DNA of 64,000 nucleotides, from the NCBI RefSeq assembly GCF_036365525.1, contig NC_090404.1, forward strand, positions 8,618,001-8,682,000. Direction: 5' to 3'. Positions within the stretch are counted from its first letter, which is position 1; every line of letters begins with the position of its first letter. Below the pieces are notes generated by a model. The model did not search any database. It saw only the letters and a program-made list of their open reading frames with translations, and was not told where the DNA came from. Below, piece after piece: positions 1 to 64,000 of this stretch. The position numbers and the translations under genes were made by a program. The DNA is from Heterodontus francisci (taxonomy: Eukaryota).

Positions 1-2945
1 TGTGGAAAGAGAAGCAGAGTTAACGTTTCGGGTCAGTGACCCTTCATCGGAACTGACAAATATTAGAAAAGTCACAGGTTATAAGCAAGTGAGGTGGGGG
101 TTGGGCAAGAGATAACAAAGGAGGTCTAGATTGGACCAGGTCACATAGCTGACCAAAAGGTCACGGAGCAAAGGCAAGCAATGTGTTAATGATGTGTTGA
201 AAGACAAAGCATTAGTACAGATTAGGTGTGAATACACTGAATATTGAACAGCAGCAAGTGCAAACCTGAAAAAAAACAGTGGGTAGGCAAACTGAACAAA
301 CTAAGATGAAATGAACTAAATGCAAAAAAAAAATTGTAAAAAATGTAAAAAAGAATGTCAAAAAAAGGAAGAAAAAAATAACTAAAAGTGAAAGTAAAAT
401 GGGGGGCTGTCATGCTCTGAAATTATTGAACTCAATGTTCAGTCCGGCAGGCTGTAGTGTGCCTAATCGGTAGATGAGATGCTGTTCCTCGAGCTTGCAT
501 TGATGTTCAGTGGAACACTGCAGCAATCCCAGGACAGAGATGTGAGCATGAGAGCTGGGGGGAGTGTTGAAATGGCAAGCAATCGGAAGCTCAGGGTCCT
601 GCTTGCGGACTGAGTGGAGATGTTCCGCAAAGCGGTCACCCAGTCTGCGCTTGGTCTCCCCACTGTGAGCAGCGAATACAGTATACTACATTGAAAGAAG
701 TACAAGTAAATCACTGCTTCACCTGAAAGGAGTGTTTGGGGCCTGGGATAGTGAGGAGAGAGGAGGTAAATGGGCAGGTATTACACCTCCTGCGATTGCA
801 GGGGAAGGTGCCATGGGACGGGGACGAAGTGGTGGGTGTAATGGAGGAGTGGACTAGGGTGTCGCGGAGGGAACGATCCCTTCGGAATGCTGACAGGGGA
901 AGGGAGGGGAAGATGTGACTGGTAGTGGCATCACGCTGGAGGTGGCGGAAATGGCGGAGGATGATCCTTTGGATATGGAGGCTGGTGGGGTGAAAAGTGA
1001 GGACAAGGGGAACCCAGTCACCGTTCTGGGAGGTAGGGGAAGGGGTGAGGGTAGAGGTGCGGGGAATGGGCCGGACACAGTTGAGGGCCCTGTCAACCAC
1101 AGTGGGGGGAAATCCTCGGTTGAGGAAAAAGGAGCTCATATCAGAAGCACCGTCATGGAAGGTAGCATGATCAGAGCAGATGCGTCGGAGATGGAGAAAC
1201 TGGGAGATTGGAATGGAGTCCTTACAGAAGGTAGGGTGTGAAGAAGTGTAGTCGAGGTAGCTGTGGGAGTCAGTGTGCTTGTAATGGATATTAGTAGACA
1301 ACCTATCCCCAGAAATGGAGACAGAGAAGTCGAGGAAGGGAAGGGAAGTGTCAGAGATGGACCATGTAAAGGTGAGAGAAGGGTGGAAATTGGAAGCAAA
1401 GTTGATAAAGTTTTCTGGTTCGGGGCGGGAGCAGGAAACGGCACCGATACAGTCATCGATGTACCGGAAAAAGAGTTGGGGGAGGGGGCCTGAGTAGGAC
1501 TGGAACAAAGAATGCTCGACATATCCCACAAAACGACAGGCATAACTAGGACCCATGCGGGTACCCATAGCAACACCTTTTACTTGAAGGAAGTGCGTGG
1601 AGTTGAAGGGGAAGTTGTTCAATGTAAGAACAAGTTCAGCCAGGCGGAGAAGGGTGGTGGTGGATGGGGACTGGTTGGGCCTCTGTTCCAGGAAGAAGCA
1701 GAGAGCCCTCAAACCATCCTGGCGGGGGATGGAGGTGTAGAGCGATTGGACGTCCATAGTGAAGAGGAGGCAGTTGGGACCAGGAAACTGGAAATTGTCA
1801 AAATGACGTAGGGCGTCAGAAGAGTCACGGATGTAGGTGGGAAGAGACTGGACCCACGGAGAAAGGATAGAGTATAGATAGGAAGAAATAAGTTCAGTGG
1901 GCAGGAGCAGGCTGACACAATGGGTCTGCCGGGACAGTCCCGTTTGTGGATTTTGGGAAGGAGGTAGAAGCGGGCTGTCCGGGATTGTGGGACTATGAGG
2001 TTGGAAGCTGTAGAGGGAAGATCTCCAGAGGAGATGAGGTCAGTGACAGTCCTTTGGACGGTGGCTTGATGTTCGGTGGTGGGGTCATGGTCCAGAGGGA
2101 GGTAGGAAGAAGTGTCCGTGAGTTGGCGTTGAGCTTCTGCAAGTTGGAGGTCGGTACGCCATACGACAACAGCACCACCCTTGTCTGCATGTTTGATGAC
2201 CATGTCGGGGTTAGACCTGAGAGAACGGAGTGCCTCAAGTTCAGAGGGGGACAGGTTAGAGTGAGTGAGGGGGGCAGAGAAATTGAGACGACCAATGTCT
2301 CGCCGGCAGTTTTCAATGAAGAGATCAAGAGCGGGTAAGGGGCCAGGGGGAGGGGTCCAGATAGAGGGAGAATGCTGGAGGCGGGTGAGTGGGTCTGCTG
2401 GTCGGGGGGAGGACTCCTGGTCAAAGAAGTGAGCCCGGAGGCGGAAGCGACGGAAGAAGAGCTCAACGTCATGCCGAGCGCGAAATTCATTGAGGTGGGG
2501 GCGGAAGGGGATAAAACTGAGACCTTTGCTGAGAACAGAACGCTCAGCATCAGAGAGGGGACGGTCAGAGGGTATAGTGAATACACGGCAAGGGGTCAGA
2601 TCAGAAGGGGTGGGGTCAGAGGGAAGTGAAGTGGAGGGAGGATCTGGAGGGACATTGGTCCCCATCAGCTGCTGGAGCTAGCGTTCCTTAACACCTGAAA
2701 GGAAGAAAAGCAGTTTTTTGTTAATGCGTCGTTTGAGACGAAAGATGAAATGAAACTGCGGAGCAGAACAGCTTTGAGAGAAGGTGAGGCGGTGCTGCTG
2801 GAGAGAGAGGTCCAGTGTGTGCATGTGGCGGCGCATAGCACTGAGTGTGGATCTCAGGATGCGGCGAGAGTAGCAGTCCGAGGAACGTTGTATTTCTCGG
2901 AGATACCTGTGATCCTGGGTGGTTTCAAAGCATGATGGGTATTCC
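1..2945 (-). mobile_element. Penelope-like retroelement (RT + GIY-YIG endonuclease), frameshifted
   Basis: ORFs 1709-2665 and 711-1757 have PLE RT motifs (ADKGG..VV, PKIHK..PGRPIVS, GVAMGT.MGPSYA, FFRYIDD); 463-714 is a shifted GIY-YIG region; terminal repeat with hammerhead-like motif at 10-58. Confidence 0.88.
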
Positions 2946-3809
2946 TCGCAGCCTGTTCACTGCCATCTGACCACTTCCCAGTACAGCTACCAGAGGGCGG
3001 CAGATAGCAATACTCCTTTCATGGATCAAACGCCGGGCAGCGAGGAGATTTCTGTTTCACCAAAAGCTGAGTAAAACTTGGAATATATAGAAGATTAATA
3101 GTTGAAATCAATTTACTTCAATGGATTGGGAAGATAGATTGAATAATAATCCTCACAAAGAAGCATCTACATATCGAACGATTGGTTTCTGAAACTAACC
3201 AGTGAGCAAGACAAGTGAGTGGAAGTTGTGGAAGATGGTGAAAGAATATTAAAATGTGAATGACAAACACACTCCGATATTTCATTTCTGAAGCCGCTCG
3301 CTGTCCCGTTAGTTGAGATAGATGATAAAGGTTTATTTCTGTTCGGTTGTTTTGTTCAGTAACAGCAGATATCATTGTTCGAATAGGAAGGATCTTTTAA
3401 TCACTCCGGCAAAATACAGAATCATTGTTAGTTCACTAGTTAACTAATCGGTGATGAAAATCTCACTGCAGTCACGGTTACCAGTGTGCTGTTGGTGAAG
3501 TTACTGGAATTTGAGAGGAAGTGTTGACGCCAGAAAAAAAAAACCAAATCTATGAGCAATCTCATGTTTCCGGTCGCAATAACCAGACAAGGGTTTGAGT
3601 CCCCGCCCCACATCTGTCGTCGCAGAACCATTTCCCCTCTTAGGACCGTGACTGTAGCCCAATCCGAGGTGTTTCCATTCACTGACAACCAGCTCACCAT
3701 CTACCGGTCTCACAGCACCACTGGGGGACACAATAAAGTGAGGTGACAAAATCCTGAGACATGACAGCAGATTATTGAGGACGGGGATTAGAACAGGTGT
3801 CTTCAAAAT

Positions 3810-5684: not shown

Positions 5685-7853
5685 AGAATTAGAATTAGAA
5701 CATTACAGCACAGTACAGGCCCTTCGGCCCTCGATGTTGTGCCAACCTGTGAAACCATCTGACCTACACTATTCCAGTTTCATCCATATGTCTATCCAAT
5801 GACCACTTAAATGCCCTTAAAGTTGGCGAGTCTACTACTGTTGCAGGCAGGGCGTTCCACGCCCCTACTACTCTCTGAGTAAAGAAACTACCTCTATCAT
5901 CTGTCCTATATCTATCACCCCTCAACTTAAAGCTATGTCCCCTCGTGTTTGCCATCACCATCCGAGGAAAAAGACTCTCACTATCCACCCTATCTAACCC
6001 TCTGATTATCTTATATGTCTCCATTAAGTCACCTCCCCTCCTCCTTCTCTCCAACGAAAACAACCTCAAGTCCCTCAGCCTTTCCTCGTAAGACCTTCCC
6101 TCCATACCAGGCAACATCCTAGTAAATCTCCTCTGCACCCTTTCCAAAGCTTCCACATCCTTCCTATAATGCGGTGAACAGAACTGCACGCAATACTCCA
6201 GGTGCGGCCTCACCAGAGTTTTGTACAGCTGCAGCATGACCTCGTTGCTCCGAAACATCGATCCCCCTACTAATAAAAGCTAACACACCATATGCCTTCT
6301 TAACAGCCCTATTAACCTGGGTAGCAACTTTCAGGGATTTATGTACCTGGACACCAAGATCTCTCTGTTCATCTACACAACCAAGAATCTTCCCATTAGC
6401 CCAGTACTCTGCATTCCTGTTACTCCTTCCAAAGTGAATCACCTCACACTTTTCCGCATTAAACTCCATTTGTCATCTCTCAGCCCAGCTCTGCAGCCTA
6501 TCTATGACCCCCTGTACCCTACAACATCCTTCGACACTATCCACAACTCCACCGACCTTAGTGTCATCCGCAAATTTACTAACCCACCCTTCTACACCCT
6601 CATCCAGGTCATTTATAAAAATGACAAACAGCAGTGGCCCTAAAACAGATCCTTGCGGTACACCACTAGTAACTATACTCCAGGATGAACATTTGCCATC
6701 AACCACCACCCTCTGTTTTCTTTCAGCTAGCCAATTTCTGATCCAAAGCACTAAATCACCTTCAACCCCATACTTCCGTATGTTCTGCAATAGCCTACCG
6801 TGGGGAACCTCATCAAACGCCTTACTGAAATCCATATACACCACATCCACTGCTTTACCCTCATCCACTTGTTTGGTCACCTTCTCGAAAAACTCAATAA
6901 GGTTTGTGAGGCACGACCTACCCTTCACAAAACCGTGCTGACTATCGCTAATGAACTTATTCTTTTCAAGATGATTATAAATCCTGTCTCTTATAACCTT
7001 TTCCAACATTTTACCCACAACCGAAGTAAGGTTCACAGGTTTATAATTACCAGGACTGTCTGTACTCCCCTTCTTGAACAAGGGGACAACATTTGCTATC
7101 CTCCAGTCTTCCGGCACTATTCCTGTCGACAATGACGACATAAAGATCAAGGACAAAGGCTCTTCAATCTCCTCCGTGACTTCCCAGAGAATCCTAGGAT
7201 AAATCCCATCTGGCCCAGGGGACTTATCTATTTTCACACTTTCCAAAATTGCTAACACCTCCTCCTTGTGAATCTCAATCCCAACTAGCCTAGTAATATG
7301 AATCTCAGTATTCTCCTCAACAACATTTTCTTTCTCTACTGTAAATACTGACGAAAAATATTCATTTAACGCTTCCCCTACCTCCTCTGATTCCACACAC
7401 AACTTCCCACTACTATCCTTGATTGGCCCTAATCTAACTCTAGTCATTCTTTTATTCCTGATATACCTATAGAAAGCCTGTGGGTTTTCCTTGATCCTAT
7501 CCGCCAATGACTTCGCGTGTCCTCTCTTTGCTCTTTTTAGCTCTCCCTTTAGATCCTTCCTGGCTAGCTTGTAACTCTCAAGCGCCATAACTGAGCCTTC
7601 ACGTCTCATCCGAACATAAGCCTTCTTCTTCCTCTTGACAAGCGCTTCAACTTCTTCAGTAAATCACGGCTCCCTCGCTCGACAACTTCCTCCCTGCCTG
7701 ACAGGTACATACTTATCAAGGACACGCAGTAGCTGCTCCTTGAATAAGCTCCACATTTCGATTGTGCCCATCCCCTGCAGTTTCCTTCCCCATCCTACGC
7801 ATCCTAAATCTTGCCTAATCGCATCAGAATTTGCTTTCCCCCAGCTATAATTC
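5685..7853 (-). mobile_element. CR1-clade LINE, 5' truncated, nested in an older CR1 fragment
   Basis: RT ORFs 6473-7609, 6164-6469, 5764-6258 ([25 protein letters not shown]); (TTCTAA)n tail; AATTCTA at both ends as likely TSD. Confidence 0.92.
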
Positions 7854-8542
7854 TAAGTGGTTTTGATGAAGTAGATCACTCGTAACTGTTTCCATGAGCA
7901 GAAAATTCGATAACCCAAGCACCCCGATTTAAGAGAAATGATAAAAAGACAAGCCAAGATGAGATTTATTTATTAAACAGCAATTTGTTAAAATCTGGAA
8001 TGCACTGCCTAAAACGGCGGCGGAGGAAGATTCAACCGTAACTTTCAAAAGGGGATTGTGTATAATCTGAAAGGGAAAGTAGAGCCGGGCTTTGTGGAAA
8101 ACGCGAGAAGTGAAGAATGAATTGGAGAACTCCTTCAAATGGGCATATGTACGATAGGCTGAATGGCCTCATTCCGTGCTCTCAGGTTCTATCATTCTAG
8201 TCCCCTCATGTCCATCACACTCTGTTGCCAACCAAACGAGCAGTGCGCATGTGCAGGATAGCCTGAGACCTCTGGAGATTCAACCCTTCGCTATTTCCTC
8301 CCATCAGTTCCGAGTGCAGCTGAGTGTCGCCGCACACTTCGCTCAATTTTGAGTCTGCGGGATCTCCGCCCACAGCTTCCGTTTGTTGCTCTCGTTCTGA
8401 CCCGATTGTCTAATTGGAGAGATTGCTACCGCGGGTCCATTCTTGTCATTGGTTGTATCAGCAGTGCAGTGGGACCGGGATCTGTATTTCTCCTTCGACA
8501 GAGAATTTCCTGCACTGCAGAGTTACAGATTCAGGAAGTATC

Positions 8543-12878: not shown

Positions 12879-15455
12879 TAGAACATAGAACATAGAACAT
12901 TACAGCGCAGTACAGGCCCTTCAGCCCTCGATGTTGCGCCGACCTGTGAAACCATCTGACCTACACTATTCCATTTTCATCCATATGTCTATCCAATGAC
13001 CACTTAAATGCCCTTAAAGTTGGCGAGTCTACTACTGTTGCAGGCAGGGCGTTCCACGCCCCTACTACTCTCTGTGTAAAGAAACTACCTCTGACATCTG
13101 TCCTATATCTATCACCCCTCAACTTAAAGCTATGTCCCCTCGTGTTTGCCATCACCATCCGAGGAAAAAGGCTCTCACTATCCACCCTGTCCAACCCTCT
13201 GATTATCTTATATGTCTCTATTAAGTCACCTCCCCTCCTCCTTCTCTCCAACGAAAACAACCTCAAGTCCCTCAGCCTTTCCTCGTAAGACCTTCCCTCC
13301 ATACCAGGCAACATCCTAGTAAATCTCCTCTGCACCTTTTCCAAAGCTTCCACATCCTTCCTATAATGCGGTGAGCAGAACTGCACGCAATACTCCAGGT
13401 GCGGCCGCACCAGAGTTCTGTACAGCTGCAGCATGACCTCGTGGCTCCGAAACTCGATCCCCCTACTAATAAAAGCTAACACACCATATGCCTTCTTAAC
13501 GGCTCTATTAAACTAGGTGGCAACTTTCAGGGATTTATGTACCTGGACACCAAGATCTCTCTGCTCATCTACACTACCAAGAATCTTCCCATTAGCCCAG
13601 TATTCTGCAATCCTGTTACTCCTTCCGAAGTGAATCACCTCACACTTTTCCGCATTAAACTCCATTTGCCATCTCTCAGCCCAGCTCTGCAGCCTATCTA
13701 TGTCCCTCTGTAACCTACAACATCCTTCGGCACTATCCACAACTCCACCGACCTTCGCGTCATCCGCAAATTTACTAACCCACCCTTCTACACCCTCATC
13801 CAGGTTATTTATAAAAATGACAAACAGCAGTGGCCCCAAAACAGATCCTTGCGGTACGCCACTAGAAACTATTCTCCAGGATGAACATTTACCATCAACC
13901 AACACCCTCTGTCTTCTTTCAGCTAGCCAATTTCTGATCCAAAGCACTAATGCACCTTCAATCCCATACTTCTGTATTTTCTGCAATAGCCTATCGTGGG
14001 GAATTTTAGCAAACGCCTTACTGAAATCCATATACACCACATCCACTGCTTTACCCTCATCCACCTGTTTGGTCACCTTGTCAAAAAACGCAATAAGGTT
14101 TGTTAGGCACGACCTACCCTTCACAAAACCGTGCTGACTATCTCTAATGAACTTATTCTTTTCAAGATGATTATAAATCCTATCTCTTATAACCTTTTCC
14201 AACATTTTACCCACAACCGAAGTAAGGCTCACAGGTCTATAATTACCAGGGCTGTCTCGACTCCCCTTCTTGAACAAGGGGACAACATTTGCTATCCTCC
14301 AGTCTTCCAGCACTATTCCTGTCGACAATGACGACATAAAAATCAAGGACAAAGGCTCTGCAATCTCCTCCCTGGCTTCCCAGAGAATCCTAGGATAAAT
14401 CCCATCTGGCCCAGGGGACTTATCTATTTTCACACTTTCCAAAATTGCTAACACCTCCTCCTTGTGAACCTCAATCCCATCTAGCCTAGTAGGCTGTATC
14501 TCAGTAATCTCCTCGACAACATTTTCTTTCTCTACTGTAAATACTGACGAAAAATATTCATTTAACACTTCCCCTATCTCCTCCGATTCCACACACAACT
14601 TCCCACTACTATCCTTGATTGGCCCTAACCTATCTCTAGTCATTCTTTTATTCCTGATATACCTATAGAAAGCCTTCGGGTTTTCTTTGATCCTATCCGC
14701 CAATGACTTCTCGTGTCCTCTCCTTGCTCTTCTTATCTCTCCCTTTAGATCCTTCCTGGCTAGCTTGTAACTCTCAAGCGCCCTAACTGAGCCTTCACGT
14801 CTCATCCTAACATAAGCCTTCTTCTTCCTCTTGACAAGCGCTTCAACTTCTTCAGTAAACCACGGCTCCCTCGCTCGACAACTTCCTCCCTGCCTGACAG
14901 GTACATACTTATCAAGGACATGCAGTAGCTGCTCCTTGAATAAGCTCCACATTTCGATTGTGCCCATCCCCTGCAGTTTCCTTCCCCATCCTACGCATCC
15001 TAAATCTTGCCTAATCGCATCATAATTTCCTTTCCCCCAGCTATAATTCTTGCCCTGCGGTATATGCCTCTCCCTGCCCATCGCTAAGGTAACCCTAACC
15101 GAATTGTGATCACTATCACCAAAGTGCTCACCAACTTCTAAATCTAACACCTGGCCGGGTTCATTACCCAGTACCAAATCCAATGTGGCATCGCCCTGGT
15201 TGGCCTGTCTACATACTGTGTCAGAAAACCCTCCCGCACACACTGGACAAAAACAGACCCATCTAAAGTACTCGAACTATAGTATTTCCAGTCAATATTT
15301 GGAAAGTTAAAGTCCCCCATAACCACGACCGTGTTACTCTCGCTCCTGTCAAGAATCATCTTTGCTATCCTTTCCTCTACATCTCTGGAACTATTTGGAG
15401 GTCTATAGAAAACTCCCAACAGGGTGACCTCTCCTCTCCTGTTTCGAACGTCGGC
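12879..15455 (-). mobile_element. CR1-clade LINE (partial APE endonuclease plus RT)
   Basis: ORFs 15144-15419 (YRPP..GDFNFP), 13513-15243, 12961-13482; (TTCTATG)n tail; highly similar to the 5685-7853 copy. Confidence 0.92.
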
Positions 15456-34457: not shown

Positions 34458-36869
34458 AATATACATTACAAACAATTTTAACTTAAGTGCCTCACACGCA
34501 TAGTCATGAGCACTTTGAAGGCGAGTGTCTTGACCAAGCGCAGTCTGATGAAGTACAGGGACAAACCCATTTCACTGAAACCTGCCCCACGTGAAATAGA
34601 ACAGTGAGAACCAGAAAGCAAACTTTACCAAATTTCGCATTTACTACGTATCAACGCAAAGCGTTATTTCAAAAGACTTAGCAGAATAGCCTACATTTCA
34701 ATGCATGTGCCTCTGTTTCTGTATGTCTTTGTGAGTGTGTTTCTGCTACCTGTGTATGTGCCAGTGTGATGTGGGTGCCGGTTATTTCTGCGTGTGCATC
34801 TCTGTGTGTCTGTGAGGATATGTGCATCATTTATGTGTGTCTGTTTGTGTTTGCATGTGTGTGTTTTCTGCCTAAATGCATTTGTTCCCTTATATATATA
34901 TGGAATATATTAGAAATCCATATATTCTGCTTGAGTTTACAGATAGATAATTCGCAAAACACGTTCCAATATGTTCTTGGCGAGAGTCGGCGAAGAGGAA
35001 ATGAGGCTGTTTAAACTCTTTAGTGTCCTCAGATTATTACAACCCAGAAGGCACAATAAATAAAAACAGATAGCTGAAAGAAAGAGATTTCATTTGTAAA
35101 CAGTGGCACTACGACGCAGGTGCAGATATTTTCTAGGTTATTTATTTGTGGCGACATTTTCAAAAGTTTCTAAAGTGACGTGTTTATTTGGTTTAGAAGC
35201 AAATTCCTACCACTATCGCTAACATACAACAATCAGAGTAATCGCCTCTCAGTCTCTATTAAAGAACATTATGAAGAAGTTAATGGATGTTTCACCCTGC
35301 TGAATATTTCATCTGTAATTTTAACTGTGCTACTTTAGAAAGCATCTTTCACAGTCTCATGATGTCCCAAAGCGCATTACATCCATACGGAAAATGTAAT
35401 CCATTAGAAATTGCACTGTAGGGTAACACAGCAGACAATAATGTGCATAACAGGATCCAGCAAACAGCAATGGGATATTTAACAGATATTCTGATTGTAA
35501 GTAGGGTTCAGGGCTCAATATTGGCCCACGACGCCAGGGAGAATTTCCAAGTTCTTTCAAAGAATGCCATTGGATATTTTGTGTCCATCTGGAAGGGCAG
35601 ACAAGGCCTCGGTTTAACCTCTCGACAGGAAAATGAACCCATGACAGTGCAGTTTTTCCTGAAATCTCAGCCTAGATTTTATGCTGAAACCTTTGGATTT
35701 GGGTTGGGATAACGTTCTTTTTGGAATATAGTGCAAAAGGAAATTCTACAACTGCAGCATGTAGCGAGCACACAGATTCTCCAGTTTGTAGCTCAACAGG
35801 TTAAAGAGCTGTTTTTACCCGTGAGGCGAAATGTTCACTCCGAAAATTTATGAATCTTATACCGAAATCAACACCTGAACGCAGTCACAGTTTGTCGCAT
35901 CGTCTCAGTTTGTGAATCGAAGGCTCTGTTCCCAGGATCTTCTTTGGACAGTTCCACATCTCACTTCCTAAACGGAAATGCATAGAACATTCCTGTGATT
36001 CAAACTCCCTTAGAAATCAATGAAAACATCAACATTCACAAGGGCTGCTGCGTCACCTGGATGTTGTACAATGTTTTTGTCTCTGGTTCCGGGATCCAGT
36101 AGATAATCTAGGTTGACACATAGGTGCAGAATGATGCCAGGAGTTATCTCGTCCCTGCTGTTACCTTGTGGTAAGATTAAACTAGCCTCTTCAGGTCGAG
36201 GGTAAGAGATATCTCGAGGTGTCGGGAATTGCCCTGCTTTGCTGACCAACATTGACACCTCACTCAATGCAATGAAGACATGTTGACGGATTATGCAAGT
36301 ATTTGTGGATCCTGATGTGTGAAATACTGACTGCAAAAATTGGCTTCAAAACAACAGTGACTTCATTTGAAAAGTTAACACGCTGTGTAAACATTTCATC
36401 ATTCCCTTTATAGCCCTTTGGTTGTTAGGTCAGATACTAAAATGATTAGCGCCTTTCATGCCGACCCAAAGTGCTTCATAAACATTTTTGTACAGTCACC
36501 AATGATCAGATCATCTGCGTTGTAATGATTTGGAGAAAGGTATTCCCCAGGGCACTCGGGAGAACTCCCAGGAGTTCTTTGGACTAGTGGTGGCATCATT
36601 TCTGTGTAACTGAGAGAACAGATGGAGCGTCGGTTTAATGTCTCGTCCGACACGGCCGACAACGGAGCACTCTTTCAATGATGTACTGAGATCTTCAGCC
36701 TGGGTTCTGTGCTCAAATCACTGGAGTGGGCCTCGAATTTACAAACATCTGGCCGACAGGCAACCAAGCCACTCACTGTGCCAGGCTGGTACCTGCTCGC
36801 TGTTTTTAGAACACTTCGATGGATCATGGGATCAATAAATTGTTGAAACGCAGCTTTTCCATAAACTGT

Positions 36870-37138
36870 TTGCAGGACTATCTCGTCTGGCACCGTGGCG
36901 TGTTCAACTTTGCAATCGATCACACCCCCATGTCTCCATCGATATATCGGTAGAAAAACAGCCGGTGTGTATCTCCCATGTACGGCGGGATGAATTCAAC
37001 TTCCTGACTGCGGTGGACGAAGTCTTCATGGATATGTTAATTTCTGGTGGATAGAAATCCGTCACCAATCAAACTGCGGCTGCGTCTCCTCCCACACTCA
37101 GAGCTCCATTCTGAAGGCGGAAGAGGTGCGTTTTTTGC
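36870..37138 (-). pseudogene. Decayed C1-set constant exon resembling TCR C-delta/C-alpha
   Basis: TTCCAG acceptor; ..LFRL..GGDAAAV*LVTDFYPPEINISMK (first Cys to TGA); after a frameshift ..PAVHGRYTPAV..VIDCKVEH; lacks the C-strand Trp, as TCR C-delta does. Confidence 0.6.
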
Positions 37139-41622: not shown

Positions 41623-41994
41623 CGACACCGTCTCCACCGGCCCCCACCCCACCTCCACCACCCACCCACAGCACCCCCCACCACCCCCCCCCCCCCCCAC
41701 CCCAGTCAACCCGCACACTCTGCGGCCAGCTCGCCTGTGAAGAACTCAACACCAACAGCGCCGGAGCCTACGGCTGTTTGGCGATGGACTACACCCCCGA
41801 AATCACCACCATTTCCTGGAAGAAAAATAAAGAACCGATCAGTACTAGATTCAAGACTTACCCGTCAGTGCCGACCAAGAAGGGAACCTACACCCGGAGC
41901 TGCCAGTTAACCATCACCGAGTCAGAGGTGGGAAGCAGCAAAATCTACTGCGAGGTTCGACGCGGAGAGTCGCTCTGGATCAATAAACTGCCAG
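41623..41994 (+). pseudogene. IGHM: IgM CH1 exon: acceptor AG mutated to AA, 75 bp C-rich in-frame insertion
   Basis: TPSPP[insert][60 protein letters not shown]|GT matches shark C-mu1 as I recall it. Confidence 0.88.
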
Positions 41995-42726
41995 GTTAGT
42001 GTCGTATACAAGGGGTAAAGTGAAAAACAGATCAGTTATATTCAACCTGTACAGAACTTTGCTTCGGTCAGCCTGAGAGTACTGCACATAATCCTGGTCT
42101 TCATTTCACACTTAGTGCGCTGTGTTTAGTTTTGGTTTTCATACTGCAAGAATGATACAGAAGCACTGGAGAAGGTACAAAAAGACTTACAAGGGCGATA
42201 CCAGAACTGAACGATTATAAATGTCAAAAAGTAATTAAAAGGCTGTTGCTCTATTCTTCAGGAAAGAGAAGGTTGCGGGTTGACCAAATACTGGTTTTTA
42301 ACATTATGAATGCGTTTAATAGGTTATATGGAGAGAAAATGTTTCTGCAAGAGAGGAAGCCCAACTCTAGGGGTTATAAGCATAATAAATTCACGAATAA
42401 ATGCAACGAAGAATGCAGGAGAAGTTTCTTCAACCAGCGTGTTTAGAATGTGGAACTTGCGACCACATAGAGCGGTTGAGACAAATGACATAGATGCCCT
42501 TGAAGAGGAATCGAGATGAGTATAGGAGGGAGAAAGGAAAGGATATTGATAGCGGGAGACAAAGCATAGTGGGAAGAGTTCATGTGGAGCAATAACTTCG
42601 ACATTGATCTATTGGATCAAATTATTTGTTTCTTTGTTTTAAATTCTATGTAATAATATTTGAAACAACGGTTTACAGTTATTTTGGATTGCAACAAAAA
42701 TACCTATATATTGTATTTTCTTGAAG

Positions 42727-43038
42727 ATCGTGTGTTACATCATCCAATTGTTATCCTCACCCAGAGTTCCAGTGAAGAAATCACAAGCAGCAGATCTGCT
42801 ACTGTCTTGTGTTCAATCATCGATTTCCATCCAGAGTCAATAACCGTGAGTTGGTTGAAGGATGGACAACCCATGGATTCGGGCTTCGTCACCTCTCCCG
42901 CCTGTGAAGCGAACGCGAACTTCTCGACGACCAGTCGGCTGACAGTCCCCGCTGGGGAATGGTTCACCAACACGGTCTATACCTGCCAAGTCTACCATCA
43001 AGTGGTCACCCAAAGCCGAAACATCACCGGATCTCCGG
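42727..43038 (+). pseudogene. IGHM: IgM CH2 exon (open frame, canonical splice sites)
   Basis: [69 protein letters not shown]|GTAAG, matching shark C-mu2. Confidence 0.88.
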
Positions 43039-43729
43039 GTAAGAGACACAAACCGAGGAAGCTCCGGATAATTCTGAGTAAAGTCAGGACTTTGATTGAA
43101 ATTAGTGTAAAGCACAGAATTATTTCGAACTTTTAATCGTGTAGCTTGTGTTTCGTTCCAAAGTAAAGGAGAAGAAAGACTTTCCTTTTTTCAGCGCGTC
43201 TAGACTCCTCTCAGAGTTTCAATCCACAAGGAAGAAGGTGAGCGGTGAGATTGAAGCAATAAGTCAGAGGTTGTGGCTATTTCCTGTGTTTGTGAAAGGG
43301 ACAATTCGTCCTATTAAATTATCTAATGGATTACTCTGATTCCACTAACGGAACCCTCTGGAACCATAGGTAATGCATTTAAGGGGAAGCTAGATAAGTA
43401 GATGAGGTAGAAAGGAATAGAAGGAGATGAAGCAAGGTGGGATGAAATTCGTGTGCAGCATAAACATCAGCACAGATTAGTTGGGCCGAATGCCCTGTTC
43501 CTGTGCTGTAAACTCCATGTAATTTTCCATTCTAATCCTTTAAGTCCTCAGTGAAAAGGATTGTATCCGCCTCTGCTCCGGGCTGGAAAACAGGACGGGT
43601 CCCAGAGGCATAAAGGAAAACCCTTAAAATCCAGCGCAAAGCCCATTCCTCTCACATCGAACCAGTGCTCTCATTGCACATGGTTATTGGTAGGCTGTGA
43701 AAATCTGAACAACAGTAACATTTCACACA

Positions 43730-44004
43730 CAAACGCAAAAACACATATAAAACACTTGCATATATATGGAGACTCAAACACATAAACACATACATTAACA
43801 AAGACACACATATATAAACACATTAAGAAGCACAAACACGCACAACACTAACTGATTTACGCACAAACGCACGCATTAGTCCGCTCACACAGGCACACAA
43901 GTAAACACGAGTGTGAACGCATACATAAATACAGTGAAAAACATCCACTAACACAGTCATACAGGCATAAACACAACGCACATCAATCCACTCACTCTCA
44001 TACT

Positions 44005-44035
<31 letters not shown>

Positions 44036-44810
44036 CCCGACAAACACGCACCCTGACACATATAAATGCAACACACTAATGTCCTCAAATACACACATGG
44101 ACACGCAGACACGGTCGTAAACACAAACATGAACGGAAACAGACACACTGAAAAACGGACACATTAACACATACACACAAACGTAAACAAACAGTGACAT
44201 ATATCAACAAACTCTCTCGCTCACACACACAAACAGAATGTTAAATATCCCCATTTACACGATCATATACACTCATTAACACTATAAACACTCATTCTCA
44301 TGTTACCTCATAAACAAATGGCCACACAAAGACAAATATCAACGAACGACACAACAGGCATGGACGCCCAAACGCACTCATAAACAAACACACTCACACA
44401 CACATGGACCCACACAGACACAAACATACACGTTAACACACACATAAAAGGACACGCAAGCACACACATAAACAAACACACGGACAGACACACAAACACA
44501 CACAAAAGCTTCTTGGCATTTCTTCGTGGATGAAGATTTTAGGCAGGTTTCGCTCATCATTTGCAGGCCTGCTGGTGGCAAGTAAGGCCTAGCCGCTACC
44601 GTAACACATAAACACTCAAGCACACACGTTAACACACACACCGAAAAAGGACTCATATAGACACATTAACACACTCAAGGTCACACAAACACACACATTA
44701 TCACACTCGCGCACATAAATGAATGCACAAACACAGAAAAATGCTAAACAAGAGATAGACATGCACACACTAAAACACGTATACTAAATGTCACATGATA
44801 CACCTATGTA
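43730..44810. repeat. Long degenerate (CA)n low-complexity tract
   Basis: About 1.1 kb of CA-rich sequence. Confidence 0.9.
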
Positions 44811-45396
44811 GAATTAAAATGTACTTTAGGATTGAGTGAAGTCTCCAATAATTGCCCTGAATAAATAAATCGTGACACGATAATATTTCACTGGTCTTTA
44901 TGTCGGTCCTAAAACACACTGAAAGAATGTCCTCAGTTTAATACTGATACAAGTTAAAGCTGTTCATTGGATTTCCACCACAGGATTTGAACTCACAGCC
45001 GACTCTCAATCAGAATCCTTGACGGTCTCCAACTAAGTTGCTATCGAAACATAACGCATGCGTGATCTATATACAGTCAGGTATCTCACCTTCATATTCA
45101 CGAACGTTAGATTGTCCGAGATTAACCCAAAATAAATTGGCGTCTGACAATGAAGGAAAAAAAAATAAAGATTTTCCAGCACGAAATGTATGAGAATCTT
45201 AAAGGAAGAACGGTTGTGGTATCAGGAACAGGAACATTGCTGAGAGTCATTCATTTAAAGTCAGATATACGTTGAAGATTAAATTACAGAACAAAATGGT
45301 ATCTCAGAGTAATGATAAGAAAACAGAATATAATAATTATATGACATCCTGGATTAATAAACGACCTGAATATATTTCCCCCTCGACATCCTGTAG

Positions 45397-45524
45397 ATTC
45401 CTCCGGCCACATCTGGATTGAAGACTATGAAGAAGAAAGCGGCAACATCAGGGCAGCCACGTCCACATACATCATCCTGTTCCTCCTGAGCATTTTCTAC
45501 AGTGTTGCCCTCACCCTGGTGAAG
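45397..45524 (+). pseudogene. IGHM: IgH (IgM-type) transmembrane exon, copy 1
   Basis: CTGTAG acceptor; DSSGHIWIEDYEEESGNIRAATSTYIILFLLSIFYSVALTLVK (Ig CART motif); followed by ATGAGA rather than GT. Confidence 0.85.
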
Positions 45525-45919
45525 ATGAGAAGATTCAATCCACCCGCAGTCACAAGAGCCTGGTGTCCATCTGACACATTCACACTGGGGAGCAGTGAGC
45601 CCGGCAATCATTCAAAAAGCACGAGGCCTATCTGATAAAGCAGGGAGGAAAGATATTGTGAATGGAACCCAGAGTCTGGTTTCTACTGGACTGATAGACT
45701 CTCTCTTTCCCATTTTGTTTATAGAAGATGGAATGATGAACGGAAAGACTGTATTTGAGGGAGAGGGGTTGAGGGATAACACATTATATGCATGGACATT
45801 TGGAATGTTCAGCTCACTAACATTGCCAGAAACAGTTTGTGTGCAAGCCGGACAAAGTTAAATTCTGATGGATAACAATTTATGTTTGTATGGAGGGGGG
45901 GGGGGGGGGTGGGCAGGGG

Positions 45920-46003
45920 TCTTAGTGTCCTTTTTGAACGAGCAAAGCGCATGTAGTTGATTATTTCATTCTGATGGTGTTCAGTTAACCCCAGTTCAGC
46001 CAT
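45920..46003 (-). pseudogene. LZTFL1: LZTFL1 N-terminal fragment
   Basis: MAELGLTEHHQNEIINYMRFARSKRTLR matches the LZTFL1 N-terminus (MAELGLNEHHQNEVINYMRFARSKRGLR); broken by a poly-C tract. Confidence 0.75.
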
Positions 46004-46309
46004 GTTGGACTACAGTAGTCCTTTAGGTGCTGCACAGATCCTCCTGCTCTCTTCCAACCGCCCTGCTCTCGGGCAAGAATGAGTTCCTTTGAAGGATCCC
46101 GAGTCCAAATGGACCACACAGACTGAAGACACAAATAGTCTGCGCTAGAGTAATCACTTCCAACCCTTCGCCATTCTCAGCAGCACTAATTAAGCCTGAC
46201 TCTGTCTTCTGTTTCCTTGACAGCATTTCTCTATGTTCTGAGACATTTTCTCCGATACGATCAGAACGTCACCCCAGGCATCCTCTCTCCTGCTGCATTC
46301 CCTCCTCAA

Positions 46310-47160
46310 ATACTGTAGCGGCCATGTAGAAATGCAGCAAGACCTGGACAATATCCAGGCTTGTGCTGATAAGTGGCAAGTAACATTCGCATGCCACACA
46401 AGTGCCAGGCGACGACCATCTCCAACAAGAGAGAATCTAACCATCTCCCCTTGACATTCAACGGGATTACGATCATTGTATCCCCCACAATCAACATCCT
46501 TGGGGCTACCATTGACGAGAAACTGAACTGGAGTAGCCATATAAATACCGTGGCTACAAGAGCAGGTCAGAGGCTAGGATTCCTGAGGCGAGTAACTCAC
46601 CTCCTGACTCCCCAAAGTCTGTCCACCATCTACAAGGCACAAGTCAGGAGTGTGATGGAATACTCTACACTTGCCTGGATGGGTGCAGCTCCAACAACAC
46701 CCAAGAAGCTCGACACCATCCAGGAAAAAACAGCCCGCTTGATTGGCACCCCATCCACAAACATTCAGTCCCTCCACCACTGACGCACAGTGGCAGCACT
46801 GTGTACCATCTACAAGATGCACCGCAGCAATGCACCAAGTCACCTTAGACAGCACCTTCCAAACCCGCGACATCTACCAACTAGAAGGACAAGGGCAGCA
46901 AATACATGGGAACACCACCACCTGCAAGTTCCCCTCCAAGTCGCATACCATCCTGACTTGGAACTATATCGCCGTTCCTTCGCTGTCACTGGGTCAAAAT
47001 CCTGGAACTCCCTTCCTAACAGCACTGTGGGTGTACCTACCCCAAATGGACTGCAGCAGTTCAAGAAGGCAGCTCACCACCACCTTCTCAAGGGCAATTA
47101 GGGATGGGCAATAAATGCTGGCCTAGCCAACGCCGCCCACATCCTTGAACGAATAAAAAA
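46310..47160 (+). mobile_element. LINE 3' end (CR1/L2-clade, different family)
   Basis: RT thumb ORF 46373-46783 (INILGATID.KLNW..HI..YKAQVRSVMEY); A-rich tail. Confidence 0.8.
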
Positions 47161-47209
47161 AATATAGAAGAGAAACTAAGTCAGTCGGGAAGGTGGAGCA
47201 AATATAGAC

Positions 47210-50200
47210 CTGTTAAGGCACAAGTGAAAAATGCAAGGCTGGATTGCATCTACTTTAACGCAAGAAGTCTTACAAGGAAGGCAGATGAATTGAGGGCGTT
47301 GGTTAACACATGGGTATATGATATTATTCCTATCACAGAGACATGGTTAAGGGAAGAGATGGCAGCTCAGTATTCCAGGGTACACAATCTTCAGGCGTAA
47401 CAGCGCGCGGGGTGGTGGGGGGGTGGGGGGGGGGGGTGGGTGTGGAGGGTGGGGTGGTGGGGTAGGTGTAGAAGAGGAGGTGGCATTGCACTATTGATCA
47501 AGGAGTCAATTACTGCAGTAAGGAGGGATGATATATTAGAAGGTCCCTCAAATGAGGCCATATGGGTAGAATTTAAAAACAAAAAGGGGACAATCACATT
47601 GCAGGGAGTGTAAAACAGTTCTCCAAACAGTAAAGGTGAGATAGACGAGCCGATATGTAGGCAAATCTCATAGAGGTGTAAAAATAATAGCGTAATAATA
47701 GGGGATTTCAACTTCCCCTATTCGCCAACTTTAAGGGCATTTAAGTGGTCATTGGATAGACATATGGATGAAAATGGAATAGTGTAGGTCAGATGGTTTC
47801 ACAGGTCGGCGCAACATCGAGGGCCGAAGGGCCTGTACTGCGCTGTAATGTTCTAATTCTAATTCTATATTAACTGTGATTGTCTTAGTACAAAAGGCTT
47901 AAAGGGGGCGGAATTCTTAAAGTGCATCCAGGAGAGCTTTTTGAGCCAGCACGTAGAAAGTCCTACAAGACAAGGGGCGGTACTGGACCTAATCTTCGGG
48001 AATGAAGCCGGACAAGTGGTGGAAGTCTCAGTGGGGGGGGGGGGGGGGGGGGGCATTTCGGGGATAGTGACCATAACTCTGTAAGATTTAATGTAGTTAT
48101 GGAAAAGGACATAGATGGACCGGAAGTAAAGGTACTGAGTTGGGGGAAGGCAGATTTCAATATGAGTCATCGAGAGAGATACAGCACTGAAACAGGCCCT
48201 TCCCTCAATTCTCCTACCACCTACCTACACTAGCGGCAATTTACAATGGCCAATTTAGCTATCAACCTGCAAGTCTTTGGCTGTGGGAGGAAACAAGAGC
48301 ACCCGACGGAAACCCACGCAGTCACAGGGAGAATTTGAAAACTCCACACAGACAGTACCCAGAACCGAACGTGGGTCGCTAAAGCAGTGATGCTAGCCAC
48401 TGCGCCACTGTGCCAAAATGATTCAACAAGATCTGGTCAAAGTGGACTGGGAACAGCTACTTATAGGAAAGTCTACATCAGATCAGTGGGAGTCATTCAA
48501 AAATGAAATAGTGAGAGTTCAGGGCCATCATGCTCGTGTAAACGTGAAGGGTAGGACTAACAAGCCGAGGGAACCCTGGATGTCAAGCGATAGAGAGGAT
48601 TGGATAACGAATAAAAAAGGAGGCTTATGGCAGATTCACAGGGCAGAAAACAATGGAGGCCCTAGAGGAGTATAGAAAGTGCAGGCGGTACTTTAATAAG
48701 TAATTAGGAGAGCGAAGGGGGTGGCATGAAAAACACTGCAGGCAAGATAAAGGAAAATCCCAAGGCCTTTTATAAGTATATCAAGGGCAAGAGGATCAGC
48801 AGGGAAAGACGAGTGCCCATTAGGGACCAAAGCGGCAATCTCTGTGTGGAACCGGAGGACGTAGGTGAGGTTTTAAATTATTACCTTTTCATCTGTGTGC
48901 ACTATGGAGAAGGACGATATAGCTGTAGAGATCAAGGAGGGGGATTGTGATAGACTTGAATAAATTAGCATTGAAAGAGAGGAGGTATAACGGTTTTAGC
49001 GGTCTTAAAAGTGGATAAATCCCCAACGCCCAGATGAGATGTATCCCAGGCTGTTGTGTGAGGCAAAGAAGGAGATTGCAGGGGCACTGACACAAATTTT
49101 CAAATCCTCTCTGGCCACAGGAGAAGTGCCAGAGGACTGGAGGACAGCGAATGTGGTACCATTATTCAAGAAGGGGAGCAGGGATAAACCAGGTAATTAC
49201 AGGCCGGCTAGTCTAACATCAGTGGGAGGGAAACTAATGGAAAAAATTCTGAGGGACAGGATTAATATCCACTTGGAGAGGCAGGGATTAATCAAGGATG
49301 GTCAGCATGGCTTTGTCAAGGGGAGATCATGTCCAACAAATTTGATCGAATCTTTCGAGGAGGTGACTAGGTGTGTAGATGAGGATAAAGCTGTTGAGGT
49401 AGTCTACGTGGACTTTAGTAAGGCTTTTGATAAGAGCCTGCATGGTAGATTGGTCAGGAAGGTAACAGCCCATGGGATCCAGGCCAATTTGGCAAATTGG
49501 ATCCAAAATGGGCTTTGTGGCAGGAGGCAGAGGGTGATTGTCGAGGGTTATTCTTGCGATTGGAAGCCTGTGACCAGTGGTATACACAGGGATCGGTGCT
49601 GGGACCCTTGCTCTTTTGTAGTGTACATTAATGATTTAGAAGTGAATATAGGAGGTATGATCAGTGTGTTCGCAGATGACACGGAAATTTTTGGTGTTGT
49701 AAATAGTGAGGAGGAAAGCCTGAGATTACAGGACGATGTAGATGGGCTGGTAAAATGAGCAGAGCAGTGGCAAATGGAATTTAATCCTGAGAAGTGTGAG
49801 GTGATGCATTTTGAGAGGACTAACAAGGCAAGGGAATATACAATGGATGGTGGGGCCACTGGAAGTACAGAAGGTCAGAGGGACCTTGGTGTACTTGTCC
49901 ATAGATCACTGAAGGGAGAACCACAGGTAGATAAGATGGTTATGAAGGCATATGGGATACTTGCCTTTATTAGCCAGGGCATAGAATATAAGCACAGGGA
50001 AGTTATGACGGAGCTACATAAAACGCTAGTTCGGTCACAGTTGAAGTACTGTGTATATTGCTGGGCACCACACTATAGGAAGGATGTGATTGCACTGGGG
50101 AGGGTGCAGAGGAGATTCACCAGGATGTTGCTGGGCTGGAGCATTTAAGCTACGAAGGGAGACTGGATAGGCTAGGGTTGTGTTCCTTAGAGCAGAGAAG

Positions 50201-50590
50201 GCTGAGGGGGTACCCGATTGACATATACAAAATTATGAGAGGCATTGATAGGTTAGACAGGAAGAAACTGTGTCCTTAACGGAGGTGTCAATAACCTGGA
50301 GGCATAGATTTAATGGAAGGGGCAGGAGGCTTAAGAGGGGATTTGAGGAAATAAAATTCACCCAGAGAGTGGTTGGAATCTGGAACGCACTGCCTGCCTG
50401 AAGAGTTGATAGAGGCAGGAACCCTCACAACATTTAAGATGTAATTAGATGAGCACTTGAAACGCCATAACATAGAAGACTACGGGCCAAATGCAGGAAA
50501 ACGGGATTAGAATAGATAAATGCTTGATGGCCGGCATGAACACGATGGGCGGAAGGACCTGTTTCTGTGCTGTATAACTCAATGACACTC
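47210..50590 (+). mobile_element. Near-full ORF2 degraded CR1 with nested SINE (48174-48414) and nested CR1 3' end (~47720-47866)
   Basis: APE motifs (ITETWL, GDFNFP) and RT ORFs 49039-49758, 49774-50148. Confidence 0.85.
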
Positions 50591-50940
50591 CCTGCTCCAT
50601 GCCCTCTGATACCATCTCCCAGAACTCAATGAACATCAGACGAGGACCATGTCAGTGACCATCAGATCGTCCCTCCCTGTTACCTGAAAGTTTCGATTCA
50701 CCTGTTTCGAGTCATCGATTTGTTTTTGGTGCCGACTGGCCTGGGGAATATCCACAGACGCTTTTGGAGTTAGGAATAGATATAGACTGATGTGATTAAA
50801 TAACTCAATTGATGTACATTGAAAAATAAATTAGGGAAATAATAATACTTCAAGTAGAATAAAACAGTATATAAAATTATAGTAATATATCTTTGGCTAA
50901 TAAACAACCTAAATATATTTCCTCCTCTACATCCCTGTAT

Positions 50941-51098
50941 ATTCCTCAGATCACATCTGGATTGAAGACCATGAGGAAGAGAGCGGCAAGATCTGGACAA
51001 CCACTTCCACATTCATCATGCTGTTCTTCTTGAGCATTTTCTACAATGCTGCCGTCACTCTGGTGAAGGTGAAAATATTCACACTTCAATCTGACTGA
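50941..51098 (+). pseudogene. IGHM: IgH (IgM-type) transmembrane exon, copy 2 (acceptor AG to AT)
   Basis: SSDHIWIEDHEEESGKIWTTTSTFIMLFFLSIFYNAAVTLVKVK..; upstream intron sequence homologous to copy 1. Confidence 0.85.
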
Positions 51099-52849: not shown

Positions 52850-53243
52850 CATGCTCTATATCACTGCGTCTCTGCCATTCACACCATGTGCAGGTTTTTG
52901 TTCAGCTCTCTCCGTGCTCTGTATCACTGTGTGTCTGTAATCTACACTATGTTCAGGTTTTTGTACAGCTCTCTCCGTGCTCTGTATCACTGTGCTGTAA
53001 TCTTCACTATGTTCAGGTTTTTGTACAGCTCACTCCGTGTTCTGTATCACTGTGTGTCTGTAATCCCCGCCAAGTTCAGGTTTTTGTACAGCTCTCTCCG
53101 TGTTCTGTATCACTGTGTGTCTGTAATCCCCACCACGTTCAGGTTTTTGTACAGCTCTCTCCCTGTTCTGTATCTCTGTGTGTCTGTAATCCCCACCATG
53201 TTCAGGTTTTTGTACAGCTCTCTCCCTGTTCTGTGTCACTGTG
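52850..53243 (-). repeat. Tandem array of six 23-RSS (60-63 bp period) plus a decayed seventh unit
   Basis: Plus-strand GGTTTTTGT-23-CACTGTG: nonamers at 52893, 52956, 53016, 53079, 53142, 53205; heptamers at 52925, 52988, 53048, 53111, 53174 (CTCTGTG), 53237. Confidence 0.95.
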
Positions 53244-59790: not shown

Positions 59791-60274
59791 TGTTCTTGTA
59801 CCTGTACTCAGCTTTACAGTAATAGGTGGCGGTGTCTTCAACTTTCACATCCCGAATTTCCAGAGAAAATGTCTTTTCTGCCTTATTCGTCCTCACAACA
59901 AATCGCCCTCCACCAGAGATCCGCTCCCGCTTGGTCCCGGTCTGGGTTTGTCTGAAGAAATATCCATTTCGGAATTGATAATTCCAATACCCACCTTCAG
60001 TGTAAACACAGGTGATGGTGAGAGACTGACACTCCTTCCTGGTCACCGCTGCCGGGGTCTGTGACACCGACTGACTGAAAGAGCCTGGAAATTAAACAGA
60101 GAGAGTTTAATGGGCCATCAGAGCCGAACCACACAACGAGGCTAAAATCCGAGACAGTGCCTATAATTCGGATGGACTCGGGCAGTTGATATTAAATCCA
60201 CACAATGTCGGTTTGTTTGATCGGTACTCACGGGGTAAACAGACACACAGGGTGAAAACAAGGAGGATTTCCAT
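59791..60274 (-). CDS. NAR-TCR V segment, intact (leader 60232-60274, V exon 59791-60084)
   Basis: MEILLVFTLCVCLP|GTGAGT; QSVSQTPAAVTRKECQSLTITC..GYFFRQ..RERISGGGRFV..KTFSLEIRDVKVEDTATYYCKA: IgNAR-like (short FR2/CDR2, ERIS.GGR), extra FR1 Cys; RSS CACAGTG, 22 bp, ACAAAAACT (59753-59790). Confidence 0.92.
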
Positions 60275-63200: not shown

Positions 63201-64000
63201 TGCAGAGATGTTGCTGACACCGGATTCACTGAGAGTTGCAGTTAGAGCTCACCAGAGGGCGCCCTCACACCAGTAAACAGAAGCAATAATTCAGCCTCCA
63301 CTCTGAGATTCTCAGGAACCTTCTTAAAATTGCAATGAAGCACAGCAATCAACAGCCACAGCTGATGTCCACTTGTGCAGTTATATTAGACAGTGATTAC
63401 AACGCACATTTATAAGAAAAATGAACTTTATATTCGATTTCTGATGCCTTGGCTCCCTTTTTGTTTTCCGATGCTCTCCCCCTGTCCACTTGTTCCTCAT
63501 TATCGCGTGGCTCCACTGTTCACCGAAAAGTGAATACTTTTCCTTTTTAAACCTTCAGTTTAAAGGTTTAAAACTTTTGTTTCTGTTCAGAATATAAATG
63601 CAGAACCGTTCCAATCGAGCTTCTAGAAGCAGGAGCTGTGGGATCCGGCCAAAGGCTCAACACAGAATCCCTCACATCCTGTTCACTGCCATCTGACCAC
63701 TACCCAGTACAGCCACCAGAGGGCGGCAGATAGCAATACTCCTTTCATGGATCAAACGTTGGGCAGTAAGGTGATTTCTGTTTCTCCAAAAGCTGAGTAA
63801 AACTTGGAATATATAGAAGTTTAATACTTGAAATCAATTTACCTCAATGGATTGGGAATGTACATTGAATAATAATCCTCACAAAGATGCATCCACGTAT
63901 CGAACGATTGGTTTCTGATACTAACCAGTGAGCAGGACAAGTGAGTGGAAGTTGTGGAAGATGGTGAAAGAATATTAAAATGTGAATGACAAACACACTC

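Follow-up and report, generated by a model that had tools for sequence, protein, structure and literature searches.

Introduction

According to the available portions of PMC1845163, PMC6795676, and PMC3457774, the T-cell receptor (TCR) genes of sharks are organized as translocons and NAR-TCR is a form of the delta chain; the accessible part of PMC12227049 likewise describes the genes as translocons. In the available text of PMC6795676, PMC1845163, PMC3457774, PMC5931798, and PMC3964593, NAR-TCR is described without a separate constant gene. The subject of this study is a decayed TCR constant gene, hereafter the relic, which lies behind a NAR-TCR cassette in a 64,000-nucleotide stretch of Heterodontus francisci DNA (contig NC_090404.1 of assembly GCF_036365525.1, positions 8,618,001 to 8,682,000); the whole stretch is referred to as the window, and all positions are counted within it. 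An initial annotation, made from the sequence alone, had suggested that the relic may once have belonged to a V-D-J-V-(D/J)-C cluster (V, variable; D, diversity; J, joining; C, constant) with a constant gene of its own, later disrupted by an IgM insertion. Our analyses place the relic in the alpha/delta class, likely as a delta-class gene, and the origin that we favor, to which we give an even chance, is that birth-and-death duplication of the 3' end of the delta locus left it stranded as a pseudogene in the V array.

TCR-mu, as set out in the available part of PMC7615758, combines two V domains with a delta-derived C and is found both in repeated units, including partial clusters, and as singlet C genes; the platypus has 15 C genes, 5 of which are in clusters. 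It differs from NAR-TCR in its VH-like V segments and in a locus apart from TRA/D, and the two receptors are held to be convergent. Unlike the V1-D-J1-V2-J2-C order of TCR-mu, the window has no J2 and is interrupted by inverted IgM exons. With respect to unit repetition, the block carrying the constant and transmembrane (TM) exons of the relic has a second genomic copy, but the sequence upstream differs from position 37208 on.

The available part of PMC12227049 reports NARTCR V segments and V-less IgM genes among the alpha/delta V segments of four species. The window resembles these arrays, with a V-less IgM at 41.7 to 51.1 kb among NARTCR and alpha/delta V segments. Table S1 of that paper is a list of annotated gene models in which TCR constant pseudogenes do not figure. 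In its stingray and catshark rows C-delta adjoins C-alpha, unlike the relic, which is found inside the V array. No report of additional or pseudogenic TCR-delta constant genes in sharks, or of C-delta amplification in Mustelus, was found in the literature searched, although the likeliest papers on the former lie outside it. A word search of the elephant-shark supplement gave 0 occurrences, for which the text format may be responsible.

Judged by six-frame translation, recombination signal sequence (RSS) scans, and tblastn, the window falls within an array of shark TCR alpha/delta V segments, and elasmobranch proteins top the matches when one of its V segments is used as the query. Alpha/delta V segments are present on both the plus and the minus strands, together with two NAR-TCR V segments (NARV) and IgM-like constant and TM exons. 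The J scan found no J-alpha array, and tblastn found no VH, in the 64 kb.

Results

The constant exon

The relic's constant exon is a TCR C1 pseudo-exon, likely of the delta class, at 37157 to 36866 on the minus strand. The initial annotation had recognized a minus-strand C1-set exon here; the exon is real and starts 19 nucleotides further upstream, at 37157. The two motifs by which it had been recognized sit in two different frames of that strand. An acceptor AG at 37159 to 37158 opens the exon in phase 1, and the first motif follows in that frame; downstream, a TGA stop (37071 to 37069) occupies the position of the B-strand Cys, and a +1 frameshift, placed approximately at 36999 to 36990, leads into the frame of the second motif and the F-strand Cys. 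After 36866, where a phase-1 donor would be expected, TT stands in place of GT and, judging from the exon length, would be the dead original donor.

A 97-residue read-through of the exon, with X placed at both breaks, passes the Pfam C1-set profile PF07654 (28.4 bits against a cut-off of 21; E value, 2.2e-6). For a codon-level profile of nine shark delta C domains the exon is the top-ranked site in the window, with 45.3 bits; tiles have a median of 15.4 bits and reach 21.4 at the 95th percentile, and the intact IgM CH1 scores 39.5 bits. Delta-C codon profiles gave 44 to 46 bits on the exon, versus 19 to 21 for alpha and 20 to 21 for IgM profiles, which is background. Single sequences behaved similarly, with eight of nine deltas scoring 21 to 34 bits and two alphas 14.6 to 14.9 bits, as did excised domains (shark delta up to 22.9, alpha 4.5 to 7.8, and IgM CH2 8.2). 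At columns conserved among shark deltas the exon is identical in 15 of 30 (1.8 expected by chance) and within one nucleotide in 26 of 30 (11.9 by chance), counts that are inflated in its favor by an optimized alignment. The register of strand A is ambiguous, since an ungapped match to the Mustelus model P0022 agrees with the acceptor and MAFFT favors a gapped one.

The alignments also show that the strand-C Trp is absent and that the F-strand Cys is followed by His, a combination that, in agreement with the alignments, marks C domains of the alpha/delta type. With the stop read as Cys, the exon fits both CLxxxFxP and CLxTD(x)F, which are given as the exon-1 signatures of trd and tra, respectively, in the available part of PMC10322711. 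Less sensitive approaches returned little. HMMER profiles run on the six-frame translation detected the C and TM exons weakly (9.7 and 4.3 bits); a word-indexed protein search with the first 57 residues, itself a weak search, gave 24 candidates, none with an E value of ≤1; and a PDB search with the C exon gave no significant single domain, multidomain antibodies leading through summed weak domains. A metagenome scan with the C-delta alignment produced 129 pattern hits, 0 of them confirmed.

The transmembrane exon

A TM/cytoplasmic pseudo-exon of the alpha/delta type, absent from the initial annotation, lies at 34581 to 34478, on the same strand as the C exon and 2.3 kb downstream of it. It retains R-x4-K, an open frame, and its own stop. 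A phase-1 AG stands at 34583 to 34582, preceded by an 81%-pyrimidine tract ending in CAC at 34591, which is possibly the original, mutated acceptor. The exon aligns without gaps to a profile of 95 alpha/delta TM sequences with 30 to 36 bits, against a null maximum of 17 to 19, and ranks first in the window in three scans. Its sole PDB match at an E value of ≤10 among 177,635 sequences is the TCR-alpha TM of 6mf8 (E value, 0.82). At columns conserved among shark deltas it is identical in 10 of 27 (1.6 by chance) and within one nucleotide in 23 of 27 (10.6 by chance). Its hydrophobicity is 1.24, versus 1.56 to 1.99 in intact delta TMs. It is through this exon that the initial proposal of a decayed TCR constant gene with C-delta features gains support.

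The TM exon appears, from these alignments, to sit 1.5 kb beyond the site initially proposed, with an acceptor near 36165. That site (36165 to 36020, minus strand) is most likely chance intronic sequence. The letters are there as described, but a TM match requires an 11-nucleotide deletion and scores at noise level: frameshift-aware alignment gave 17 to 18, another scan 16.1 against a window top of 48.2, and the codon profile 8.1 bits, below the background median. With the 95-sequence profile, the deletion costing 4 bits, the site reached 2 to 9 bits and ranked 40th to 47th on its strand, and shuffles yielded 0.6 to 0.7 equally scoring sites per 3 kb. It had 0 PDB matches at an E value of ≤10, and its supposed acceptor follows a tract of 46% pyrimidine and reads AAG|GTAAC, which is donor-like. 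In favor of the site, the hand-picked residue pattern is found at no other place in the window and is missing from all 60 shuffles, a uniqueness that we discount because the pattern was fitted after the fact.

No connecting-peptide (hinge) exon with an interchain Cys rose above background between 36.8 and 34.6 kb (11 to 13 bits; median, 12.7), the hinge profile being weak because hinge exons vary greatly.

Taken together, the two exons resemble elasmobranch TRDC (Hypanus XP_059806677, Rhincodon XP_048475117, and the Mustelus and Heptranchias models) in the phase-1 C1 exon, in CL-xxx-F-x-P (stop read as Cys, a reading that fits the tra signature as well), G-x-Y, F-L-P, and the F-strand Cys..His, in lacking the strand-C Trp, and in having a separate TM exon with R-x4-K. 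They are unlike it in being broken, in having no upstream J and no hinge exon, and in an identity of 21 to 30%. To judge from its lesions the relic likely makes no protein.

Lesions in reads and a second copy

Four DNA runs from one sample contain 86 to 89% of sampled words. One of them, which may derive from the assembly's own sample, was assembled as a check on the lesions. The frameshift is spanned by a contig with 0 differences from the window, and the stop by a contig whose sole difference is at 37709. Four more contigs, at a depth of 8 to 10 compared with 14 to 19, are 86 to 92% identical to the relic and span the TM exon, part of the intron, and both halves of the C exon. We read these lower-depth contigs as one second, paralogous copy of the C and TM block, although no single contig joins them; they might instead represent a strongly diverged haplotype.

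The second copy has 15 nucleotides deleted inside the TM exon and diverges from the relic to a similar degree in the 3' half of the C exon (38 of 280 positions) and in the intron (146 of 1,008), with 14 of 170 in the 5' part. Its homology ends at 37208, about 50 nucleotides upstream of the C acceptor. The half read depth suggests hemizygosity, that is, copy-number variation. Two further runs, possibly of RNA, had no depth on the C or TM exon and provide no evidence on expression; in a 2026 capture run from another sample neither exon was covered.

Class of the relic

The C exon was compared with a panel of 183 proteins, of which 150 were the top matches, out of 292, when a shark C-delta profile was run against 1.84 billion representatives; shark TCR-beta, shark immunoglobulin (Ig) light chains, and MHC are not knowingly among its members. 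The best single domain was the Tasmanian devil TCR-mu C (22.5 bits; identified via PDB 7l15), followed by a Stegostoma chain (21.5 bits), Hypanus C-delta (20.3 bits), Heptranchias C-delta (19.6 bits), and a turtle delta-like chain (18.1 bits). Ig light chains scored 16 bits or lower, so that the best hits are TCR domains, contrary to one way in which the initial proposal might have failed. The Stegostoma chain is presumably a TCR-gamma by its motifs, a label that the PDB search left unsettled.

A tree including gamma sequences drew the relic to the outgroup, where long branches meet, and a tree on the C domain alone was unresolved. Most of the bony-vertebrate labels in these trees are our own reading of unnamed sequences.

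The NAR-TCR cassette

The cassette precedes the relic on the same strand, as the initial annotation had it, and ends 16.1 kb 5' of the C acceptor. Its NARV (60274 to 59753) has a leader ATG at 60274, a V exon at 60084 to 59791, a 22-spacer RSS, and an open frame, and is 72% identical to Mustelus NARV. It is followed by a D segment (59399 to 59386) with a 12-RSS on each side, a J segment (58980 to 58917) with a 23-RSS, a GT donor, and a DGSGT core shared with the Mustelus models, and a leaderless supporting V-delta (53549 to 53244; with its RSS, to 52882) that carries a CDR1 Cys and is 84% identical to the Mustelus supporting V-delta. NARV, D, J, and a leaderless supporting V-delta with CDR1 Cys and 23-RSS, the parts of NAR-TCR as described by Criscitiello et al. 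(2006) and relayed in the available portions of PMC1845163, PMC6795676, and PMC3457774, are all present between 60.3 and 52.9 kb.

The 23-RSS of the supporting V-delta (52882 to 53243) forms about six tandem copies of a 63-bp unit, most of which match the consensus. This arrangement could raise recombination frequency or permit retries.

Between the cassette and the C exon, no minus-strand J was found by the J scan from 37.2 to 52.85 kb; the best score was 11.8, versus 36.2 for the NAR J, and candidates at 51.5 and 38.4 kb were rejected by the same scan. A lone 12-RSS-like site at 51556 to 51529 (minus strand), 1.7 kb behind the supporting V-delta, is oriented to pair with its 23-RSS. It scores 21 of 25, a score that two further sites in the interval match, and no recognizable D or J lies behind it.

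Directly upstream of that site is a GC-richer stretch (52200 to 51500, minus strand) in which we noted motifs resembling YY1, ETS, and CRE sites. The stretch is possibly a remnant germline D/J promoter.

C-delta duplication in other sharks

A whale-shark C region used as the query gave 27 matches, 8 of them RefSeq models of Mustelus asterias; a ninth was reached through cluster membership. The nine models (P0016 to P0023 and P0042) lie on nine scaffolds, no two of them equally long, and between them encode 8 different C sequences, separated by 0 to 26 changes in about 156 amino acids. This exceeds what two alleles can explain and would imply at least four loci. In five of the nine, NARV, NAR J, and supporting V are found in the same model, and four of these five add a further J. 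Heptranchias perlo has two C-delta models side by side on one scaffold (P0025 and P0027), one of which follows a NAR J and supporting V and has no hinge exon. All of these units are automated models, and haplotype duplicates or misjoined exons may inflate the counts.

The Mustelus copies appear from their sequences to be recent, lineage-specific duplicates of the canonical C-delta, and Mustelus likely has an amplified, cluster-like NAR-TCR/delta locus. The models pair NAR-TCR parts with a C-delta of their own, such that the initial annotation's link between NAR-TCR and a constant gene has counterparts elsewhere, and we consider it rather probable that clusters of a cassette plus its own C-delta exist in some sharks. 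The Mustelus copies are no nearer to the relic than the remaining deltas. Such units therefore arise, but the membership of the relic in one is not thereby shown.

In the Cetorhinus maximus model P0044, a J follows a supporting V-delta upstream of further V segments and a J-C-delta. If the model is collinear, this is an orphan J behind a NAR cassette.

Discussion

The relic may best be explained as a constant pseudogene, likely of the delta class, that an old segmental duplication, in a birth-and-death process at the 3' end of the delta locus, left behind in the V array. Under this explanation, a D-J-C-delta block would have been copied into the V array, an event that, to judge from the models of Mustelus and Heptranchias, may recur in sharks. 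The block would then have decayed, with loss of the J and the hinge exon. The C and TM block would have been copied again, probably after or around the death of the gene. The present place of the relic 16 kb behind a cassette would reflect later shuffling of the V/IgM array instead of a preserved unit, and the intact-looking cassette would rearrange to a distant canonical D-J-C-delta. The relic and the multi-C-delta models, which come from two distant orders, suggest birth-and-death duplication of the delta 3' end in sharks, such as took place in birds and nonplacental mammals. Nearness to a cassette would not be rare, since shark V arrays often contain NAR cassettes; there are 2 NARV segments in the window and 7 NARTCR rows on great white chr27.

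Several results weigh against this explanation. The relic is 21 to 30% identical to eight intact delta C domains of other sharks, versus 30 to 54% between genera; its Pfam C1-set score exceeds those of four intact shark delta chains (19 to 26 bits); and it has an extra Trp ahead of the F strand. The high C1 score and the extra Trp are not predicted by simple decay from a shark-type C-delta. In a tree of C plus TM without gamma, the relic groups with bony-vertebrate delta/mu (86/80), outside the starred shark-delta clade (97/94), although approximately unbiased (AU) tests reject neither a grouping with shark delta (P = 0.245) nor one with alpha (P = 0.139). On the C domain alone, the gamma-like Stegostoma chain comes within 1 bit of the best match (21.5 versus 22.5), and the best single domain in PDB is a constant domain of the Ig lambda type (13.7 bits, not significant). 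Finally, the shared strand and the 16-kb spacing would fit a cluster equally well.

That cluster, in which the relic is the dead constant end of a NARV-D-J-Vdelta-(D)J-C unit whose second D/J was replaced by the IgM fragment with inactivation of the gene, is the initial proposal in its full form, and we regard it as possible though distinctly less probable. The strand, the order, and the 16.1-kb distance are right, the lone 12-RSS-like site is correctly oriented behind the supporting V, and such an architecture is seen in five of the nine Mustelus C-delta models and in one of the two of Heptranchias. Platypus TCR-mu, in the available part of PMC7615758, similarly has both clustered and singlet C genes. 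However, the 15.6-kb interval holds no J and no convincing D, the score of the RSS-like site is not unique, and the homology of the second copy takes in only some 50 nucleotides ahead of the C exon. The cassette V segments are open and 72 to 84% identical to those of Mustelus, compared with 25 to 30% between the relic and Mustelus C-delta; this gap implies very different histories for cassette and relic, tempered by the faster evolution of constant-delta (about 50% between genera). The Mustelus duplicates are recent, moreover, and forcing the relic together with them gives an AU P value of 0.055. IgM exons do lie between cassette and relic, on the opposite strand, and may have been inserted into a cluster. 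The IgM fragment and the C exon face opposite ways 4.5 kb apart, and a breakpoint in that gap could stem from such an insertion or from a junction formed by chance. Of what the initial annotation had observed, then, the C1 exon, the strand and spacing, and the intervening IgM stand, and the TM exon at 36.1 kb does not.

It is less probable still, and in our view doubtful, that the relic belonged to an ancient, separate alpha/delta-class lineage, a shark "C-delta-2" that was long functional and died late; this could be combined with either origin above. Its low identity to all shark delta C domains, high generic C1 score, best panel match to TCR-mu C, and grouping with bony delta/mu would be accounted for, as would the small number of lesions, with a single stop and a single frameshift in 97 codons, and the open TM frame. 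Against this, the relic sits on a long branch (1.9 to 2.4 changes per column) that joins the outgroup once gamma is included, the AU tests are not significant, and the top panel scores fall within 3 bits of each other. No intact orthologue of the relic is present among the best 150 of the 292 shark C-delta profile matches, and the N-terminal spacing to the first Cys is the same as in the Mustelus model P0022.

Derivation of the C1 exon from a non-alpha/delta gene (TCR gamma or beta, or an Ig light or heavy chain), with an unrelated TM exon, is very improbable: the Stegostoma and Ig lambda-type scores, and two trees in which long branches bring the relic to IgM CH or gamma, are outweighed by the missing strand-C Trp, the alpha/delta TM exon on the same strand 2.3 kb downstream, second-copy contigs that cover both exons, and delta profiles that beat IgM profiles.

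More speculatively, and with a similarly low expectation to that for a "C-delta-2," NAR-TCR may have come to lie repeatedly in clusters of a cassette plus its own C-delta, which would be intact and amplified in Mustelus, duplicated in Heptranchias, and dead in the window, the relic being a dead one of an ancient lineage nearer to bony delta/mu than to living shark C-delta. If true, repeated clusters would be at odds with the view of the shark delta locus as a single translocon, and the convergence of NAR-TCR and TCR-mu would reach from protein shape to gene organization. NAR-TCR clusters in the shark past are hinted at by the relic but unproven. The relic itself is likely functionless and is of interest as a fossil and for having pointed to the Mustelus clusters. 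Public assemblies can now be used to ask if receptors with two V domains are prone to gain a constant gene of their own and to form clusters.

A possible counterpart deserves mention. Table S1 of PMC12227049 lists the great white LOC121270132 ("TCRa VVCtm") on the plus strand beside NARTCR V segments. It is oriented toward the V array, which C-alpha is not in the rows for stingray and epaulette shark, and may represent either the canonical C-alpha or a gene corresponding to the relic.

The remaining features of the window concern the array as a whole. The IgM-like fragment (41690 to 51068, plus strand) comprises a CH1 at about 41.69 to 42.00 kb, a CH2 at 42.73 to 43.04 kb, and two TM1 exons, the first at 45.40 to 45.52 kb with its GT donor changed to AT and the second, 79% alike, at 50.95 to 51.07 kb. 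The fragment is presumably IgM by its motifs; no further CH exons of it were seen, and no JH motif was found between 37.2 and 41.7 kb. A second NARV (19212 to 18741, minus strand) is 86% identical to the first at the DNA level over 1.1 kb; it has an in-frame stop, and D, J, and supporting V are absent behind it. Two copies of a long interspersed nuclear element, at 5696 to 7854 and 12893 to 15050, are 95.6% identical across 2.1 kb, and 2941 to 3274 is an inverted match of 63667 to 64000 (93%). Judging from their similarity, this pair and the inverted match point to recent duplication activity within the array.

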